Below the pieces are notes generated by a model. That model saw only the letters and a list, made by a program, of their open reading frames with translations, ran no database searches and was not told the origin of the DNA. DNA of 64,000 bases, from contig OZ024740.1 in the NCBI GenBank assembly GCA_964016885.1, forward strand, positions 361,460,001-361,524,000. Direction: 5' to 3'. The stretch's first letter is position 1; every line of letters starts with the position of its first letter. This stretch comes from Eledone cirrhosa. Its lineage: Eukaryota. Positions 1,909-52,305 of the stretch are shown here, one piece after another. The position numbers were made by a program, and so were the translations under genes.

Positions 1909-34101
<32,193 letters not shown>

Positions 34102-35182
34102 TTTTGGTAAGACTGCGTTCTCTTCGCAAGAAGATAGCTGAAGGAAAGAAAGAAAGGAAGAAATGAGACGAAAGGAAGCGAAAGAAAAAGCAAAACAAAA
34201 CAAAAAACAAACAAACAAAGAAGCATAAATATATTAATGAATAAAATAAAAAGTTTGTCTCTTTAATGAAAATTCACAGACCAATGAAAGTTGAGCAAAG
34301 GACAATCCGTGAGATAATTAAGTTGATATGTTTTTTTCTTCCTTTTATCTTGTGATATGATATATATCCCCCCTCTTTCTCTCTCTCTTTCCCTCACTAT
34401 CTGTTTCTCTATCTCATTCTCTCTAACCCTGACTCTGATTTCTTTTTCTCCCCCTATCTCTCTTACACACCTATATTTATACATACTCCTATGATTACAC
34501 ATTAAAACGCCTCACATACACGCACACATACACATACATATACACATGCACACACTCACACCTATTTTATTGAAATGGCTTACATTTTTTTAACAGGATA
34601 TCTTACTTTCTTCTTCTTGCTTTTTTTCTTCCTTTCTTTTTTCTTTCGCTTTTTTCTTCTTTGTTCATTCATGTCTCGTGTCACGTGACGTACCAAACCT
34701 TTTCCCTGACAAAATTCTACGGCCAGAATTCTCTCACCTCTTTCTGTTCAAACCAGTCATAACTGGCTGCTCATACTGATGTTAAGGTATTGTTCTCAAA
34801 ATAAATGACATCAAAATCTCGTAGATTTGATATTACATAGATAATTATGTAAAATAAAGCCTTTACCACAAAAATACAGTAGTAAATATAGAATGATGTA
34901 AATGCTAAAGGGTTAACTTAATTGCTATAGATTAATGTTTTGTCTCTTGTCTCCTACTCCACTGGACAGCGTTTGGCTTATGTGACCCCGGGTGGACCAG
35001 TAGTACTGTAGGTAAGGGTCTAAACTGCCAAAGTCCATCTCAACGGCTGATGACCATAGAGTTCAGTGTCCCTCGTTTGTATTTTTATTTTTTAAAAACA
35101 ATTTTAAAAGATTTTCCCTTAAAAAAATGTTTTGCGCTTTGTTTTGTTTTCATTCGTTGTCTTGTCCTCTTTTGTTAATTTT

Positions 35183-35221
<39 letters not shown>

Positions 35222-36480
35222 TTATAGGAGCCCACTTGAATATATATCTATTGATGGTATACAAGCTCCTACATAAATTGGTATAATTTCACCCAAATTG
35301 TAGGAATCCTATAATGAAACGAGACGTCCGTCTGGGAAGAGATATATTAGATATGTCTCATTTGAAATAATACAGCCAATTTTCCACGCAATACTTTTAG
35401 TTAGCACCCCGAACACATAATTGGAAATATAACCACTTATTTCCTAATGTTTGTTGAGTGAGTTGGAATTTGGCCGGAGTATCGCTAAAAAGCTTTCTCC
35501 GATATTGTATTTATATATATATATAGTCCTGTAGAAGCCATTTCTATATTAAACATATATATATATATATAAAACAAAGAAAGTGTTGTAAGGAACCAGG
35601 TGGACCATAACGCACCAGAGTACTCGATACTTAGGGTAGTAGAGTGGGTAATAGGAAAAAAGAGTCAGGACCCCGACGGCTGAGCTCCGGCCGTTTCGAC
35701 AGCCGTCCTAATACTGCTGTGTTAGTTCGGATCTAGCTGTCGAAACGGTCGGAGCTCAGCCGTCGGGGTTCTGACTCTTTTCCTATATATATATATATAC
35801 ATATATATATATGATTCAGTGGTGGGGAGAGGAAGGGGGGGATAGATGACAGGATAGAGGGGTTAGGGTTGGAGGTCATATAAGTATGGGTGGTGACGGC
35901 AGGCGAGGAGCGGAGAGAGTAGAGTTTGTGGTTTTTTATGGAAGTGAGGAAATTGAAAAGGAGGCGATTGAGGTAAAGGATGAATTGGATAAGGGATTGG
36001 GCGAGGAAAGGGTGGCAAGTAGAAGAGAGATGGAGGTAGGCGTTGGGGGGATCTCGGTCGAAAGAACGGATTTGGACGTGAGTTGATCGAATGGTCGCCC
36101 GCATGAGCTGGCGAGAGGAGAAGGTAAGGATGGGCTCAGTGGTGGGAGCAGAGAAAAGGGTGGGGTGGAACTTGAGACGGAAACCGCGGGGAATGAGGTG
36201 GTGGTGGAGACAGCAACTTAAAAAGGTAATGTGACTGTTGTATTTTGTTTTGGTGAAGATGTGGTCGGAGAGATGCAGGGAATATATATATAGGAAAAAG
36301 TATGACCCCGACGGCAGAGCTCAAGCCGTTTCGACGGCTATTTCTGAACTAGAAATAGCTGTCGAAACGGCTTGAGCTCTGCCGTCGGGGTCATACTTTT
36401 TCCTATTTCCCACTCTACTACCCTAAGTATTGAGTACTCTGGTGCGTTATGGTCCATCTGGTTCCTTACCACAATTCCTT

Positions 36481-36512
<32 letters not shown>

Positions 36513-37508
36513 GTTTAATATAGAAATGGCTTCTACAGGACTAGAACTGTTTCACTCGAAGGAAATCACCAGGAGAGCTGACTGTCAATGTGATATGGTA
36601 TTTCTACATTTTCTGGTGGTAGGGGAGGATGGTGATTGGGATGGGTAGAGGTCATTGGTCGATGGATTTAAAGACTAAGGGCGGTGGAATATTATTATTA
36701 ATATTCGAAAAGCTCAGATTACATTTATTGTATTCAGCCATGTAGAGCGAAAAATCCTTTTTTTATTTGAATATGGCAAAGCCGGTCATTCATCGCTCGT
36801 ATACAGGAAACTGACTGGCCAGTCTGCTGATATGCAAATCTGACTGATGGATCTGCTAATATGCAGATTTGACTGATCAGCCAGTCTGCTAATATACAAA
36901 TCTGGCCGATCAGTCACTGTATAATTTCGAAAATAGCATATATTTTCACTAGCTCTGAGAGTTGGCAGGTGAACAGTGAGCTGTACTGATGAAGGGCGAT
37001 ACCCAGAAACATTAGTGTCTGCAGTTATGTTTACATGCCAACATGAGAGCAAGAATGAGGGGCTCATTCTACTGACATGGCTTTAAAAATGAGACTTGTT
37101 TGCATAATTGCAAACGAATCGAAAATTATTATTAATATTCGAAAAGCTCAGATTACATTTATTATATATATACATATATAATAAAAAAAATTTAGCTCTA
37201 CATGGCTGAATAAAATAAATGTAATCTGAGTTTTCGAATATTAATAATAATATTCTATTCGTTTGCAATTATGCAAAGAAGCCTCATTTTTAAAGCCATG
37301 TCAGTAGAATGAGCCCCTCATTCTTGTTCTTGTGTTGGCATGTAAACAGAACTGCAGACACTAATGTTTCTGGGTATTACCTTCATCAGTACAGTTCACT
37401 GTTCACCTGCCAACTGTCAGAGCTAGGGACAATATATGATATTTTCTAAAATATACAGTGACTGATCGGTCCGATTTGCATATTAGCAGACTGGCTGATC
37501 AGCCAGAT

Positions 37509-37580
<72 letters not shown>

Positions 37581-38044
37581 TAGATAAAATAAAGTACCAG
37601 TAACACACCGCGGTCGATTTAATTGACTTTCTCCGCCACCAAAATTGTTAACCTTGTGCCTAAATCAGAAACCATTATAATATAGATTGTAAAACAAAAC
37701 AAAACAATTTTTTCTGCAAAAATTTCTCGACATTCATTTCACACAGTTCTTAAGAAAACCCACTGTACTAATAGGAAATGGGAGAGGGAGAGAAGGGGGA
37801 GAGAAGAGGGAGAGAGGGGGAGGGAGAGAGATGTAGGAGGGAGGGAGAGAGAGGGAGAGAGAGAGAGAGAGAGAAAGAGGATATATATATATATTTAGGT
37901 TTGTTGATAGAACTGGTCATTCCGGATGGTAAACCTTGAGGGCGGTTGACGGGGCTGGTAGCTGCTAAAATGGTCGGCCGCCCTCATGTCTCTGATTTTC
38001 AGCACAATGGATTTTGTCTATTATATTCCTTTGTTATATTTCGA

Positions 38045-38102
38045 ATACCTGATGATGTCACCGGATTCATACTGAACCCAGTCATTGAAATGATCATAGT
38101 AT
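38045..38102 (+). ncRNA. Minimal hammerhead ribozyme
   Basis: AUAC-CUGAUGA-(31 nt hairpin)-GAAA-UGAUCA-UA-GUAU, with palindromic stem III. Confidence 0.6.
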
Positions 38103-38156
38103 AATAAACCTTTTAAGGAATTACACCAGTCCAGCCTCCTGTTATTTTATAATATA

Positions 38157-38235: not shown

Positions 38236-41200
38236 TCTCTCTATATATAAAACGGTAGATGTCTGTCTGTGTGTGTGTTGATTTTTATGCATTTCCACAT
38301 TTCTCTACCGATTTTGATGATTTTTTTTCCAATGTGCTCCAAATTTACCAGGGCAGTTCAACGTGTAATTACTTTTGCCAAAAGTTTCCTGCTTCTATGA
38401 AAAAAAATCGATAAAACTAAATACATGCTATAACCCTCTCTCTTACACGCTTCATTCCTCTCACTACCCTCAATCTCCTCCGCAACTCTCTTTAAAAGGT
38501 TACTACCTCCGTCTCTGAAGGAACGCGACACAAACTTTGATAACCCTCTCTCTTACACGCTTCATTCCTCTCACTACCCCCAATCTCTTCTGCAACCCTC
38601 TTTAAAAGGTTACTGCCTCCGTCTTCATTACAGTTTAGAACAACAACAAATCTTCTCTCTCTATAATAGATAATTCACCCTCTTCGTTCGTCATACATCA
38701 ATATCAAAATTTAAAAAGCCGATAACACTAAATACTTACTGCTCTCTCAACGTTACATTTTACATCAAATAACAATTCAAAAGCAACAGATGAATTTATA
38801 AAACAATAAACGTAACAATAACGACGCTTAAGCGTTCATTTACTTGAATCTCAACAAAGACATTATATTTTATTGTTGTCCTTTTTGTAATTTTTCTTTC
38901 TTTGTTTTTCTCAATATGAGACAAAAAATTAATGAGAAAACTTTTTTAACGAACGTCTGATTTCGATGATTTATTTTTCAGTGTGTTCCAAAATAACGCT
39001 CTTGTTTTCGCTCTTTTGTGCTATAACTCAGACAGGCTTGGCTTACAGGTTTGACCTATTATTTGACGTGCATTCTTCATAGATCTTACTTAGTACTCAT
39101 TTTCCACTTACTCACCGTTCAATTGAAAGTTTTGGCTACTCTCCCTTTCATGCTCCATTACCTGCATAAATATTTACGTGTTCGGTCCTGCTACAATATA
39201 GTACGCACTTTAAACTAATTCAAAGTTCATTTGAAAATTTTCACTACGTTTACGGTCATGCCACCCCCCAAAAGACCACGACTTAGTCGCCAAACTAAAG
39301 CTGCTTCTGCTGCCAAACGAAGAAGAGCTACAGAGTTGTCCGTAGAAAAATTGACTCGGTTGTCACAAAATGCAACTCGAAATGCAATTACCCGGGCAAC
39401 CGAGACAGAAAAAAAGAGGAGCATCCGCCTTTCCGGAAATGCATTTGTAACTGCAGCGCAAACTGATGAACAACATTCTCGACGACGAAGCAAAAATGCG
39501 GCCTCCACCGCTGCAGCACGTGACGGTGAGGACGAAGAACACCGTTACAGTCGACGACGAAGAGATGCCGCCTCAACTGCTGCGTCACGTGCTGCCGAGG
39601 ACGAAGGGCAGCGTTCCAGACGTCAACGTACGGATGCCGCTTCAACAGCTTCCGTTCGCGCATCAGAGACTGCGCAAATTCAATTACAAAGGCTAAACGC
39701 CAACGCACTCCGCAGGAGTGCTAAACGAGGTATACAGAGGATCAGTTGCACTCAGTAGTCTCATAAGGCTTTCCACTATGACCCAACAGTAAACTATGCA
39801 CTGATGCCAGAAGTTCAGATTGGATCCATGTCTGTCATTTGCCAATATTGTCGGGCAAAAAAATGGCCTGGGGAGACTTCAGGGATGTAATGCTCTGACG
39901 GCAAAGTGAAATTGCCTCCTCTACAGGAACCACCACAACCTTTGAAGTCTCTACTGACCGGTGCCACAGCGGAGTCGGAACACTTCCTTCGATGTTCCAG
40001 GAGATACAACGCTGCCTTCCAAATGACCTCTTTCGGAGCTAACATCGTACGAGAGGACGGCTGCATGCCTACCTTTAAAGTTCAAGGACAAATTTACCAC
40101 AGAATCGGTTCGCTACTGCCCACGACAGACGGACAGCCCCAGTTCCTACAGCTATACTTTGTCACTGAATATTTGGACCAAGGGGAACGACGCGCTTCAA
40201 TTTCGCCTGGTACAGGCATGAAAATTCTGTTGCAACTCGAGAGAATGCTGCACGAAAACAACTACATTCGCAGTTTTAAATGCGCTTTGGAGGCTGCTCC
40301 GTTGCCAAATTTTGCTGTTATAATCGACGCTGACAGGAAACCACCAGGCACCCACGCCAGACGTTTTAACGCTCCCACGTGCAATGAAATAGCTGTGCTT
40401 CTTCACGGAGAACAGTACAACAAGCGGGACATCATACTTCAGTGTAGAGACAATAGTCTGCAACGGATCAGCGAGACGCATAGGTCCTACGACGCATTCC
40501 AATATCCCCTACTTTTCCCATTCGGTGACGACGGATACCACTTTGGAATTCCTTTGTGCAACAGCAACAAAACTGTTTCCTCTATGCAATTCTACACCTA
40601 CCGATTCATGGTCCGTGAATGCTGCTTTAACCAACTCCACCGTGCAAGAGTACTCTTCAACCAGCTTGCTGTAGACGCGTGCGCAAAGATGGAATCTGAA
40701 AGGCTGTGCTACATAAGGAACAATCAAGCACGCCTTCGTTCGGACAGCTACATTCACTTACGGGATGGAGTAAGGAATGACGTCGATCCCGAGAACCTTG
40801 GAAAATATTGTATCCTTCCGTCGACCTTCATCGGGAGTCCCCGATACATGAGTGAACGCACACAGGATGCTATGACGTACGTGCGTCTCTACGGCAGACC
40901 GGATCTCTTCATCACTTCAACATGCAACCCTAAGTGGAATGAAATTACGGCGGAATTATTCCCCGGACAAAGGGCGTCAGACAAACACGATCTTACGGCA
41001 CGAGTCTTTCACTTGAAGTTGACAAAACTTATTGAACTCCTAAAATCAGGTAAGGCCTTTGGACCTGTTAGGTGCTACGTATACACCGTTGAGTGGCAAA
41101 AGAGAGGCCTGCCACACGCTCACCTACTCATTTGGCTGATAACGAAAATCAACGCAAGCAACATTGACAGCATCATTTCAGCAGAAATACCCGACCCAAA

Positions 41201-44024
41201 ATTGGACAGAGAACTCCACAACATCGTCACGGCTCACATGGTTCATGGGCCATGCGGAAACGGTTTCAACATAAATTCTCCATGCATTAAAGAAAGAAGG
41301 TGCACCAAGAGGTATCCTAGGCCATTCCTCCGAGAAACTCGGACAGGTGGCGACGGTTATCCATTATACCGCCACAGAGAGCCAGCGGACGGAGGAATTG
41401 TTGCTAAAACACCACATCACAACGTCGACAACCGGTGGATTGTACCCTACTGCCCACTTCTGCTTAAATTGTTTAACGCCCACATTAACGTTGAATACTG
41501 CCACTCCGTCAAATCGATAAAGTACGTCTGCAAGTATATCAATAAGGGGTCCGATGCTGCGTCCTTTGGTCTTACAATGGAGAACAACCGAGACGAAGTA
41601 ACTCGATACCAGGTCGGCCGATGCATCAGCAACAATGAAGCATTCTGGCGATTCTTCCACTTTGTAATACACCATAACTAACTACCCCCCCCCCCAATCA
41701 AACAGTTGGCGGTGCACCTTGAAAACGGTCAAAGAGTCTACTTCACCGCCTCCACCGCTGCTGAGATAGCAGAGGAACCCAAGGACACCACACTTACGGC
41801 ATTTTTTAAGTTATGCCGAAACGATCCCTTCGCCAAGACCATCTTCTACTCTCAGGTGCCATCATACTACACATGGAACACAGACAACAGAATTTGGTTA
41901 AGAAGGGTGAAAGGACAACCCGTCGAGGGACATCCAGACATTAAAATGTCCTCTACCCTTGGGAGAGTGTACACCATTCATCCTAACAAACAGGAATGCT
42001 TTTATCTCCGCCTTCTACTGCATGAGATGGTAGGACCGACATCTTTCAACGATCTGAAAACAATCAACGGAGAGCTTTGTACTTCATTCCGCGCAGCCTG
42101 CCTTAGACGGGGTCTACTGGAAGATGGCGCTCAGTGGGATGCGACATTGGCGGAGGCAGCTACAATACGCTAAGCGCGAACTCTTCGGCAACTCTTTGCG
42201 GTGCTACTGCAGACATGCGAGTTAAGTGACCCTGCATCCTTATGGGACAAATACAAAGAGGACCTTTCTGATGACTACATACACCAAGGACAACTGCTAC
42301 TCCCTCATTCTGACGTACGACTCAGCGACGAATTCTTCAACAAAGCTCTCATTGACATCGAGGACAAAATCCTAACTGCCGGCGGAAATGACCTTCCATT
42401 CTATGGACTGCCAAAAGTTCAGCGAACGGGCTCCGACAAACTTCCGACGGGCATAATTCAGGAAACTGCCTACGACGTCCACGCCCTCGAACTGTTCATC
42501 AACGAAAACGAGCCGAAATTGTTGCAGGACCAACGGCAAGCGTATGACACAGTTTGCACTTCCATTCGTCAACGCAGAAGAGGTATCTTCTTTTTGGACG
42601 CCCCAGGAGGAACTGGTAAAACATTCGTCAATAAACTCCTCCTCGCCAAAGTGCGACAGCAGAAAGGAATCGCCCTGGCTGTGGCTTCTTCTGGCATTGC
42701 CGCAACTCTGCTGCCCGGAGGTAGGACAGCTCATTCCGCATTTAAACTGCCATTCAACACGACTTCAGACGACACAATAACCTGCAACATCACCAAGGAC
42801 TCTGACAAAGCAGAAGTCTTGAAAAGATGCCACCTAATTGTGTGGGACGAATGCACAATGGCCCATAAAGGGTCCCTTGAGGCGTTAGACAGGACTCTAC
42901 GAGACATCAGGGAATACAACCGGCCGATGGGAGGAGTACCTCTACTGCTGTCTGGCGATTTTCGACAAACTCTTCCAGCTGTGGGGGCTTGCATTAAGTC
43001 ATCTCCCTGTGGCAGGAAGTGACAATCCTGACCCTCACAACAAACATGAGAGCCCAACTGCTCAGCGACCACTCAGCAGCCGACTTCTCAAAGGACCTCT
43101 TAACAGTTGGTGACGGCACTGCACCTTCAGATGCAGCTGGAGAAATGGCAGTCTCGCAAGTAGGCACCGTTGTCGACACTGTTGACGACCTCACAGCTTC
43201 TGTCTTTCCCGATATGGCCACCAACTACAAAAACACGAGTTGGCTATGCGATAGAGCCATATTGGCTCCAAAAAATGTCTCAGTTGCAAAAATCAATGAG
43301 GACCTTCTGCAACGCATTCCTGGAAACCTCCGTACCTACAAATCTGTGGACAAAGTTGAGGTTGACGATTTTCCAACAGAATTCCTCAATTCCTTGGACC
43401 TCTCTGGACCGCCACCTCATGAACTGCGCGTCAAAGTTGGAACTCCAGTCATGCTGTTGAGGAACCTGGAACCACCGCGTCTCTGCAATGGAACACGGTT
43501 AGTGGTAAGAAACCTCCTGCCGCATGTAATTGAAGCCACAATTCTCACGGGCTGCGGCGCTGGGGAAAATGTCTTCATACCCAGAATACCATTAACTCCA
43601 TCAGGTACGGAATGCCCCTGTACTCTGCGCCGACTTCAATTCCCCGCTAAACTTTGCTTCACGATGTCAATAAACAAGTCCCAAGGCCAAACGCTATCAA
43701 CGGCAGGCCTGCATTTAGCCCAGCCGTGCTTCTCACACGGCCAATTATACGTCGCATGCTCAAGAGTGGGATGCAAGCAGAACTTATTCATACTTGCGCC
43801 CAAAGGCAGAACAAAAAATGTGGTCTACATAGAGGTGTTGTGACTCCTCTATTCAGCACCATTGCAGTCTTGCCGGTCTGACATATAGTGAGTAGATGCT
43901 ATTGTTGTATATTTTCAAACTTACCCGTATTTACTTTCAATGCCTCAATATTCATAATTGAGTGGAATCATTAAAAGTACTTTAAAGCAATTAAACTCCG
44001 AGCAACGCCGGGCACTTCTGCTAG
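38236..44024 (+). mobile_element. Full-length Helitron (rolling-circle transposon), about 5.8 kb, coding region disabled
   Basis: A|TC 5' end, a 3' GC hairpin (ccgagcaacgccggg) followed by CTAG|T, and an internal Rep-Helicase region. Confidence 0.93.
39258..43843 (+). pseudogene. Helitron Rep-Hel (HUH endonuclease + Pif1 helicase), broken into several ORFs
   Basis: Motifs YTVEWQKRGLPHAHLL, YVCKYINK, DAPGGTGKT, IVWDE, GDFRQ, MSINKSQGQT and HGQLYVACSRV. Stops near 39756, 39888, 41679 and 42171; frameshifts near the C-run at ~41685 and at ~43000. Confidence 0.92.
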
Positions 44025-48809: not shown

Positions 48810-48959
48810 AGGTACGTATTTGCACTTTGATTTATACTTTTAATTATTGTGTGTCTACTTTGCCTTCCATGGGCTATAGATCCCATACACTGGTGGTTTT
48901 TCCTTGTTTGACTGATGGCGCATTATCTCCCTCGCTGGTGTGTTATCTTTTTTACATAT

Positions 48960-50207
48960 TGTATTATATAATATATATATATATATATATATAATATATA
49001 TGTATATATAATATATCATATATAATATATATTATATATATATAATATATATATATTATATATGTATATATAATATATCATATATAATATATATATATAT
49101 TATATATATATAATATATATGTATATATAATATATCATATATAATATATATATATTATATATATATAATATATATGTATATATAATATCTAATATCTAAT
49201 ATATATATATTATATATATATAATATATATGTATATATAATATCTAATATATAATATATATATATTATATATATATAACATATATGTATATATAATATAT
49301 CATATATAATATATATATATTATATATATATAATATATATGTATATATAATATCTAATATATAATATATATATATTATATATATATAAAATATATGTATA
49401 TATAATATCTAATATATAATATATATATATTATATATATATAATATATATGTATATATAATATATCATATATAATATATATATATTATATATATATAATA
49501 TATATATATTATATTATAAAATATATATGTATATATAATATATCATATATAATATATATATATTATATATATATAATATATATGTATATATAATATATCA
49601 TATATATATATTATATATATATAATATATATGTATATATAATATATCATATATAATATATATATATTATATATATATAATATATATGTATATATAATATA
49701 TCATATATAATATATATATATTATATATATATAATATATATGTATATATAATATATCATATATAATATATATATATTATATATATATAATATATATGTAT
49801 ATATAATATATCATATATAATATATATATATTATATATATATAATATATATGTATATATAATATATCATATATATATATATTTATATATAATATATATGT
49901 ATATATAATATATCATATATATATATATTTATATATAATATATATGTATATATAATATATCATATATATATATATTTATATATAATATATATATACGTAT
50001 ATATATATATATATATATATAATTATATATATACGTATATATATATATTTATATATATATATATACGTATATATATATATATCATATATATAATATATAT
50101 ATACGTATATATATATATATCATATATACGTATATATATATATCATATATATATATATATACGTATATATATATATCATATATACGTATATATATATATC
50201 ATATATA

Positions 50208-50245
<38 letters not shown>

Positions 50246-50334
50246 TATATATATATATTATATATATATATATAATATATATATATATCATATATATATA
50301 ATATATATATCATATATATATATAATATATATAT

Positions 50335-50369
<35 letters not shown>

Positions 50370-50420
50370 TATATATATAATATATATAATATATATATCA
50401 TATATATATATAATATATAT

Positions 50421-50456
<36 letters not shown>

Positions 50457-50770
50457 TATATATATATATATAATATATATAATATATATATCATATATAT
50501 ATAATATTATATATATATATTATATATATATATATATATATAATATATATATATATATCATATATATATATATTATATATATATATATATATATAATATA
50601 TATATATATATTATATATATATATATATATAATATATATATATATCATATATATATAATATATATATCATATATATATATAATATATATATCATATATAT
50701 ATATATATATATATAATATATATATATATATAATATATATAATATATATATCATATATATATATTATATA

Positions 50771-50808
<38 letters not shown>

Positions 50809-50935
50809 TATATATATCATATATATATATATTATATATATATATATATATATAATATATATATATAATATATATATATATATATAATATATCATATATA
50901 TTATATATATAATATATATATATATATCATATATA

Positions 50936-51022
<87 letters not shown>

Positions 51023-51048
51023 ATATATCATATATATATATATAATAT

Positions 51049-51082
<34 letters not shown>

Positions 51083-51108
51083 ATATATCATATATATATA
51101 TATAATAT

Positions 51109-51142
<34 letters not shown>

Positions 51143-51181
51143 ATATATCATATATATATATATAATATATATATATATAAT

Positions 51182-51216
<35 letters not shown>

Positions 51217-51385
51217 ATATATCATATATATATATATAATATATATATATATATATAATATATATATATATAAATATATAATATATATATATATAATATA
51301 TCATATATATATTAATATATATATATATAATATATCATATATATATATATAATATATATAATATAATATATATATATATATATAT

Positions 51386-51433
<48 letters not shown>

Positions 51434-51439
51434 TATATA

Positions 51440-51478
<39 letters not shown>

Positions 51479-51529
51479 TAATATATATAATATATATATA
51501 TATAATATATATATATATATATAATATAT

Positions 51530-51582
<53 letters not shown>

Positions 51583-51648
51583 TATATAATATATATAATA
51601 TATATATATATATATAATATATATATATATAATATATATATATAATAT

Positions 51649-51680
<32 letters not shown>

Positions 51681-51685
51681 AATAT

Positions 51686-51717
<32 letters not shown>

Positions 51718-51734
51718 ATATATATATATATCTA

Positions 51735-51765
<31 letters not shown>

Positions 51766-51843
51766 ATCTATATATATATATTATATATAATATATATATA
51801 TAAATATCTAATATATAATATATATATATAATATATATATATA

Positions 51844-51896
<53 letters not shown>

Positions 51897-51950
51897 ATAT
51901 ATATATAATATATATATATAATATATATATATATAATATAATATATATAT

Positions 51951-52003
<53 letters not shown>

Positions 52004-52007
52004 ATAT

Positions 52008-52103
<96 letters not shown>

Positions 52104-52105
52104 AT
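48960..52105. repeat. ~3-kb (TA)-derived low-complexity/satellite block
   Basis: Almost pure A/T with higher-order units, ending at the assembly gap. Confidence 0.95.
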
Positions 52106-52305
52106 NNNNNNNNNNNNNNNNNNNNNNNNNNNNNNNNNNNNNNNNNNNNNNNNNNNNNNNNNNNNNNNNNNNNNNNNNNNNNNNNNNNNNNNNNNNNNNN
52201 NNNNNNNNNNNNNNNNNNNNNNNNNNNNNNNNNNNNNNNNNNNNNNNNNNNNNNNNNNNNNNNNNNNNNNNNNNNNNNNNNNNNNNNNNNNNNNNNNNNN
52301 NNNNN
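52106..52305. other. Assembly gap (200 N)
   Basis: Run of N. Confidence 1.

Follow-up and report, generated by a model that had tools for sequence, protein, structure and literature searches.

The question raised by this locus is how part of an intron and of an exon of an ETS-family gene came to be duplicated some 14 kb away, joined to a repeat that carries a hammerhead ribozyme motif. The window is a stretch of 64,000 nucleotides from Eledone cirrhosa (contig OZ024740.1, positions 361,460,001 to 361,524,000, forward strand), and all coordinates below are positions within it. The original prediction held that ETS pre-mRNA had been reverse transcribed from an intronic Penelope terminal repeat (pLTR) and reinserted nearby as a case of host exon capture. 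We found that the 555-base piece at 37195-37749 combines an independent ribozyme-motif retroelement with approximately 300 bases of ETS intron and exon in one chimera. It was likely produced in a single event, when the template was switched during insertion, and is likely without function. The features are listed here, with family H as the name used for the high-copy repeat that includes 22845-23168, and A and B as its two subfamilies.

22845-23168, minus: source element, a 5'-truncated subfamily-A copy of family H in the ETS-gene intron; core at 23006-23040, 3' end at (TA)n
23169-23414, minus: source intron with (CA)n, a SINE-like piece at about 23241-23351, unique sequence, and the donor GT at 23414-23413 (predicted from sequence)
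23415-23672, minus: predicted exon for the SAM/Pointed domain of the ETS gene, present once in the genome; boundaries from splice consensus and phase
36515-36680, no strand assigned: unrelated high-copy repeat (3094 candidates)
36687-37167, plus: separate family-H insertion of subfamily B, with three additional markers; core at 36986-37019, tail-to-tail with the copy
37161-37194, no strand assigned: (TA)n and A-rich tract between the 3' ends of the two H elements, the likely target site
37195-37397, minus: first part of the chimera, the 3' part of a subfamily-B family-H element; core at 37357-37389
37398-37469, minus: crossover interval (equivalent to source 23049-23120), from the last B allele to the first source-specific allele
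37470-37712, minus: second part, a copy of source 23121-23379 with the element 5' end, (CA)n, the SINE piece, and unique intron
37711-37749, minus: third part, 39 bp from the Pointed-domain exon (23470-23508), following a skip of 92 nt; the original acceptor and donor are missing
37750-37780, plus: fourth part, a 31-bp piece of a Penelope-like ORF, followed by a (GA)n tract

The local copy and its source

The source exon codes for a SAM/Pointed domain (PF02198, E = 1.8e-15); 7178-7438 contains an Ets exon (PF00178). Because the Ets exon is nearest to EHF/ELF3/ELF5 among solved structures, the gene is EHF/ELF3/ELF5-like and not of the ETS1/2 type; Pointed is used here as the name of the domain, not of such a gene. 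The Pointed-domain exon had been numbered exon 2, but acceptor-like and donor-like sites farther upstream suggest that it is a later one. Longer homologues of the exon were sought in a weak search, and none was found. Elsewhere on the minus strand, 12957-13664 contains a long poly-glutamine coding stretch with a basic motif at its end; it is likely one of the middle exons of this ETS gene.

Local BLAST and alignment confirmed the predicted duplication: 37195-37749 is a copy of 22848-23508 minus 92 nt. The interval 37161-37712 matched 22811-23379 at 90% in direct orientation, 37708-37749 matched 23467-23508, and the exon piece (37711-37749 against 23470-23508) was identical at 39 of 39 bases. 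The gene, the source element, and the copy all lie on the minus strand, with donor and copy 14.35 kb apart in direct orientation; the order exon, intron, and hammerhead motif on the gene's sense strand is as predicted, source element and gene being both on the minus strand. When the non-repeat interval 23345-23660 was used as a query against the 3.0-Gb genome, three matches were obtained, namely, the source and two pieces of the copy. The intron and exon piece derives from the local gene. The deletion at T-run microhomology had also been correctly described: the 92-nt skip, between 23378-23469 and 23380-23471 depending on register, has a 2-nt exact T match within T-runs, removes the end of the exon together with the predicted donor GT (23414-23413), and is non-GT-AG in every register.

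Many sites, and the subfamily, distinguish the copy from the source. In the sequencing reads of runs X1 and X2, which are one sample and possibly the assembled individual, a 58-bp contig with zero differences extended over 37683-37740 and spanned the deletion junction. Its depth was 6.4 and 7.3, respectively, the level of single-copy sequence, and it reached 28-30 letters to each side of the junction, below the 31-letter bridging rule. No copy-specific contig crossed the right junction (37749/37750) in the read runs screened, and the RAD run X7 and the small run X4 gave no coverage at the unique junctions. Neither an empty site nor an intermediate allele was found in any read run searched; a contig of run X5 that resembled an empty site at 37750 was rejected as another copy of the Penelope family. 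No target-site duplication was seen by eye, both flanks of the copy being simple repeats. The gene is single copy, and no remnant of the unique sequence of 23509-37194 was found in 37750-64000 or in the next 30 kb. A surviving tandem gene duplicate was rejected, with no second exon or promoter present.

The region 36510-37160 had been read as the inverted 5' duplication typical of Penelope-like elements (PLEs). It consists instead of an unrelated repeat and a separate H insertion. The fragment at 22745-22812 belongs to the same repeat family as 36515-36680, which accounts for the match at 36490-36578, and the element at 36687-37167 carries three markers absent from both copy and source. In addition, this inverted element adjoins the 3' end of the copy, not its 5' end, and 3'-side inversions were seen at 0 of 54 family loci. 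Conversion of the copy by the adjacent inverted element was rejected because the copy lacks the three subfamily markers and the private alleles of that element.

Several other repeats surround the chimera. To its left, 35524-36543 comprises inverted repeats (82%), each arm with an internal palindrome, around an open frame of 195 codons; the frame had no Pfam match, but by its motif it resembles the N-terminus of another Penelope-like element. To its right, 37880-38150 is another high-copy repeat (2165 candidates) with a hammerhead-like core from 38049, often found in inverted pairs elsewhere in the genome. A Helitron, whose Rep and PIF1 helicase frames are interrupted by stop codons and a frame change, spans approximately 38240-43900, immediately upstream of the ETS gene; capture by it was rejected because it appears to start near 38240, to the right of the copy. 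At 48950-52305, approximately 3 kb of degenerate (TA)n satellite runs up to a 200-N assembly gap.

Family H and the two ancestries of the copy

With the source as query, family H gave 3615 candidates genome-wide, of which the best 40 were scored. For comparison, 54 other copies were aligned, 28 drawn from the best matches to the source and 26 from those to the copy, with duplicates and the two loci themselves removed; the sample is thus non-random. Family-H copies have a fixed 3' end, mostly at a TA-rich tract, and variable 5' truncation points, and inverted segments occurred on the 5' side of 21 of the 54 loci. A second 3' motif was present at seven of the 54 loci, at a spacing of 420-445 (six loci) or 580 (one). 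By our own descriptor, the type I hammerhead core was intact in 46 of 57 rows, with 6-8 of 8 pairs in stem I, and type I hammerhead-like cores lie on the gene's sense strand in the source (23006-23040) and in the copy (37357-37389, with stem II shortened). An Rfam search gave no hammerhead match in family H, and minimum-energy folds lacked the hammerhead conformation (z -0.7 to -1.7), neither result being a measure of activity. Because of the fixed 3' end, 5' truncation and inversion, tandem units, and type I core, family H fits a non-autonomous Penelope derivative or a non-LTR retrozyme. The name pLTR is putative for it, since the element could not be linked to a Penelope ORF: no autonomous partner was found in a young PLE array or at the 54 loci, family H had no similarity to that array, and PLE ORF pieces occurred within 1.5 kb of only four of the 54 loci at inconsistent positions.

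At three of the 54 loci (L004, L021, and L068), the 5' end of H abuts the end of the same SINE-like repeat at a similar position, probably through a shared target preference. Pieces of the young Penelope family described below lie up to approximately 300 bp from the 5' ends of other H copies (L008, L010, and L012); H and young PLE sequences are thus joined or nested at other loci too. Two pairs of family-H loci (L028/L029 and L014/L022) resemble segmental duplicates.

The alignment separated the two haplotypes A and B. The A state was found at all 12 A/B columns in the source and the B state at 11 of them in the copy, where the remaining column reflects an alignment offset; the 12 columns amount to about five independent features. 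Over 22866-23050, the source ranked 51st of 56 as a relative of the copy, with 21 of 182 sites different, but over 23100-23166 it ranked first of 54. Among 13 rare source alleles in 22850-23050 (present in at most 15% of the family), 12 were absent from the copy. Past the crossover, copy and source have in common a GGTCCG variant found in none of the 54 others, as well as the junction to (CA)n. The two differed at 21/182 sites ahead of the crossover and at 6/219 beyond it (Fisher p = 0.0005). Genome-wide searches agreed: among the best 40 of 3615 places, five distant family-H copies matched the source better than the local copy did, and with the copy as query, the source was absent from the best 40 places scored.

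On these alleles, 37195-37397 is assigned to subfamily B and not to a derivative of the source, and the part from 37398-37470 onward is assigned to descent from the source locus; the crossover maps to 37398-37469 (72 bp), within sequence common to the new element and the resident copy. The element part of the copy had been thought to come from the intronic element, which its rank of 51 of 56 and the single shared rare allele contradict. Simple priming of a reverse transcriptase from the intronic element fails for the same reason, since the 3' approximately 200 bp of the copy belong to the other subfamily. The only contrary allele is a G at 22931/37278, present in copy and source inside the B part and in one of the 54 others, possibly through homoplasy or patchy conversion. 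Private changes were similar in the B part and in the source-derived part (about 2-3%), which fits one event. Changes since copying lean to the copy, 7-8 against 1-2 (p = 0.04-0.18), an excess that the favoured model below does not require.

At the far junction, the exon piece is joined without microhomology to 31 bp (37750-37780) that are identical at 31 of 31 positions to some copies of a young Penelope-like element, after which the (GA)n tract follows. The piece is ORF sequence from just before the GIY-YIG region, with the plus strand as its coding strand, opposite to H. The young family has similarity to reverse transcriptase and GIY-YIG, 5065 genomic matches to the adjacent 30-mer, and tandem units of 4147 bp at 99-100% identity. 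No further copy of the 31-mer was found in the window or in 50 kb of fetched flanks. Among 12 loci read for breaks at this point, only this one departs from the Penelope family sequence. The filler could be a separate, later event.

Arrays at G000:C1:14378001-14398000 (L108 and L109) and at L115 belong to this very young Penelope-like family. They contain three tandem 4147-bp units at 99.9-100% identity and inverted 5' segments, their frames are broken at different places in the two, and the terminal repeat has a hammerhead-like core. The family is a candidate for recent activity.

Candidate routes to the chimera

We favour, at about even probability, a homology-guided switch of the growing strand of a B element onto the intronic copy, with chromosomal DNA as the probable template, leaving what is likely a neutral relic. 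A subfamily-B RNA would have been reverse transcribed at the (TA)n tract 37161-37194, with the strand growing rightwards. After 200-275 nt, this strand would have paired with the source element within 23049-23120; the crossover itself is observed in the mosaic, and the pairing is its proposed cause. Copying would then have continued through the element 5' end, (CA)n, the SINE piece, and the intron, slipped by 92 nt at the T-runs, and ended after 39 nt of exon, of which the product, including the skip, is present in the sequence. Finally, the end would have been joined across the break with the 31-nt Penelope ORF filler, likewise present, at a time that the model places last. The same product would result if a B element had inserted first and a later break in it were repaired from one side, and this course is included in this reading. 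The order of the steps, their union in a single event, and the template are the model's proposals. Pairing by homology predicts direct orientation and nearness, which match the donor and copy 14.35 kb apart. The sequence itself is compatible with either a DNA or an unspliced RNA template. DNA is favoured over pre-mRNA on three grounds: a DNA template directly accounts for the nearness of the donor, the skipped stretch is no splice product, and A-to-G changes show no significant excess. As predicted, a Penelope-type process is probably involved.

The recurrence screen covered 20 kb on each side of 20 among the 54 family loci, which were selected by visual inspection for 5' flanks other than microsatellites. 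Local capture adjacent to the junction was found at 0 of 20, a weak bound from a small screen, and only three of the 20 neighbourhoods contained another family copy. The other matches in the screen were a tandem repeat (L018) and a 31-bp match 305 bp from the junction (L071). As background, 20 of 300 random 500-bp pieces had a duplicate more than 1 kb away.

It is unlikely, in our estimate, that the reverse transcriptase switched from B-element RNA to nascent unspliced ETS pre-mRNA, jumped 92 nt, and stopped in the exon. Such a switch requires the source element and the gene to share their sense, as they do, but this has a one-in-two chance of occurring anyway. Precedents exist in the available portions of two reports: Penelope elements retain introns, and an intron-containing host gene was moved in a rotifer (PMC3846280), and one L1 insertion carried co-inserted local pre-mRNA (PMC10191854). 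Of the 7-8 changes specific to the copy, 2-3 are A-to-G on the sense strand, but this share is not significant (p = 0.07 for 3/8; 0.22 for 2/7), and in the family as a whole neither strand was favoured (43 versus 44). The Penelope ORF piece at the far junction also speaks for such a process, but it is opposite in polarity and cannot derive from the same strand copying sense RNA. The switch would further require germline transcription of the ETS gene, and the deletion is non-GT-AG in any register. No RNA signature was found for the pre-mRNA template of the original prediction. The complete sequence of events, in which a Penelope reverse transcriptase moved within one insertion from ribozyme-element RNA to the nascent pre-mRNA of a neighbour and the end was closed with Penelope ORF sequence, we consider rather improbable.

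Unequal crossing-over between the source and an inserted B element, as direct repeats, followed by deletions that left the first 280-350 bp, is quite improbable. It would yield exactly the crossover junction observed, and local duplicates are common, as the random pieces and the two segmental-duplicate-like family pairs attest. By contrast, it needs at least two further events, a deletion of approximately 14 kb and the 92-nt deletion, leaves the 31-bp filler unexplained, and is accompanied by no surviving second exon, promoter, or B-element 5' end. Very doubtful, too, is copying of the whole piece from the source locus, for example, from pre-mRNA, with its 3' 200 bp later overwritten by a B element. 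The shared G inside the B part and the stop of the copy at the usual family 3' end are consistent with overwriting, but the absence of 12 of the 13 rare source alleles is against it. The adjacent inverted element cannot have been the donor because its three markers and private alleles are absent from the copy, and two events of similar age would be required. An assembly artefact, for which the right junction without a copy-specific contig would speak, is extremely improbable given the many site differences, the second subfamily, and the error-free contig over the deletion junction.

Consequences and relation to known systems

The term exon capture overstates the result: the 39-bp exon piece is internal and has neither its acceptor nor its donor, so no working exon was captured. 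Zero differences in 39 bp are expected at this divergence, and there is therefore no sign of constraint. Judged from splice-like sites, the piece probably lies approximately 2.5-3 kb upstream of the start of the ETS gene. On the minus strand of 37650-37770, AG dinucleotides from a (TC)-rich tract and the Penelope piece stand upstream of the exon fragment. A weak GT in the SINE piece results from two changes at 37650-37651 that are specific to the copy; a cryptic exon arising there by chance is conceivable. The event was most likely a neutral one-off.

In a Penelope-type family, the locus preserves a homology-guided switch and a multi-template junction as a clean natural record, and subfamily alleles place the crossover within 72 bp. 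It leaves current knowledge unchanged, being a single, old, non-coding event without sign of function or recurrence. It would gain weight if many such chimeras existed genome-wide with donors biased to sense-oriented intragenic copies. If the switch onto pre-mRNA were the true course, thousands of intronic copies would open a way to the local shuffling of introns and exons, and such relics would record how PLE insertions are resolved; the completion of the 5' end of Penelope-type insertions is still described as an open question in the sections available of two papers (PMC8557442, PMC11167929).

The class of event is already known from templated insertions of L1. A literature search, with most subscription papers and supplements outside its scope, found no PLE case of exactly this kind. 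The accessible text of one study describes 22 templated L1 insertions in which cDNA pairs with nearby homologous DNA in a manner like synthesis-dependent strand annealing (SDSA), mostly with less than 250 bp copied from within 15 bp of the target (bioRxiv 10.1101/2024.08.27.596794). Another, as far as its available part extends, reports L1 insertions with locally templated DNA, including two templates in opposite orientations (PMC11702581). As in those cases, a local genomic duplicate is here joined to the 5' side of a new retroelement copy, and several templates were used per insertion, one of them in opposite orientation. Unlike them, the element here is a non-coding hammerhead-motif repeat of approximately 430 bp, and the switch went through 90% homology to a resident copy, with a donor 14 kb away instead of within 15 bp. 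The single described L1 switch to local pre-mRNA (PMC10191854, in the portion available) resembles our locus in the co-insertion of gene sequence adjacent to the target, but here the template type is putative and neither a target-site duplication nor poly(A) accompanies the insertion.

Family H has the traits given for retrozymes and PLE derivatives in the parts of the sources consulted, namely, a type I core with a short helix III and partial tandems of 420-445 bp, together with the lack of an ORF, low GC, 5' truncation and inversions, and TA-rich targets (PMC7229834; PMC4209133; bioRxiv 10.64898/2026.07.22.740005). Its short tandem unit falls within the 150-450 bp of non-LTR retrozymes and PLE derivatives. 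Unlike retrozymes, the copies in our sample are mostly monomers, and they have an extra A before G12 that was not met in the literature consulted. The mobilisation of intron-containing host genes by Penelope elements in Adineta vaga (PMC3846280) likewise linked a Penelope-type terminal repeat to introns and exons of the host. In the rotifer, two direct pLTRs enclose a complete gene, and the target-site duplication measures 8 bp, whereas the Eledone chimera has a 39-bp exon fragment, a single element end, no target-site duplication found, and an element ancestor that differs from the donor.
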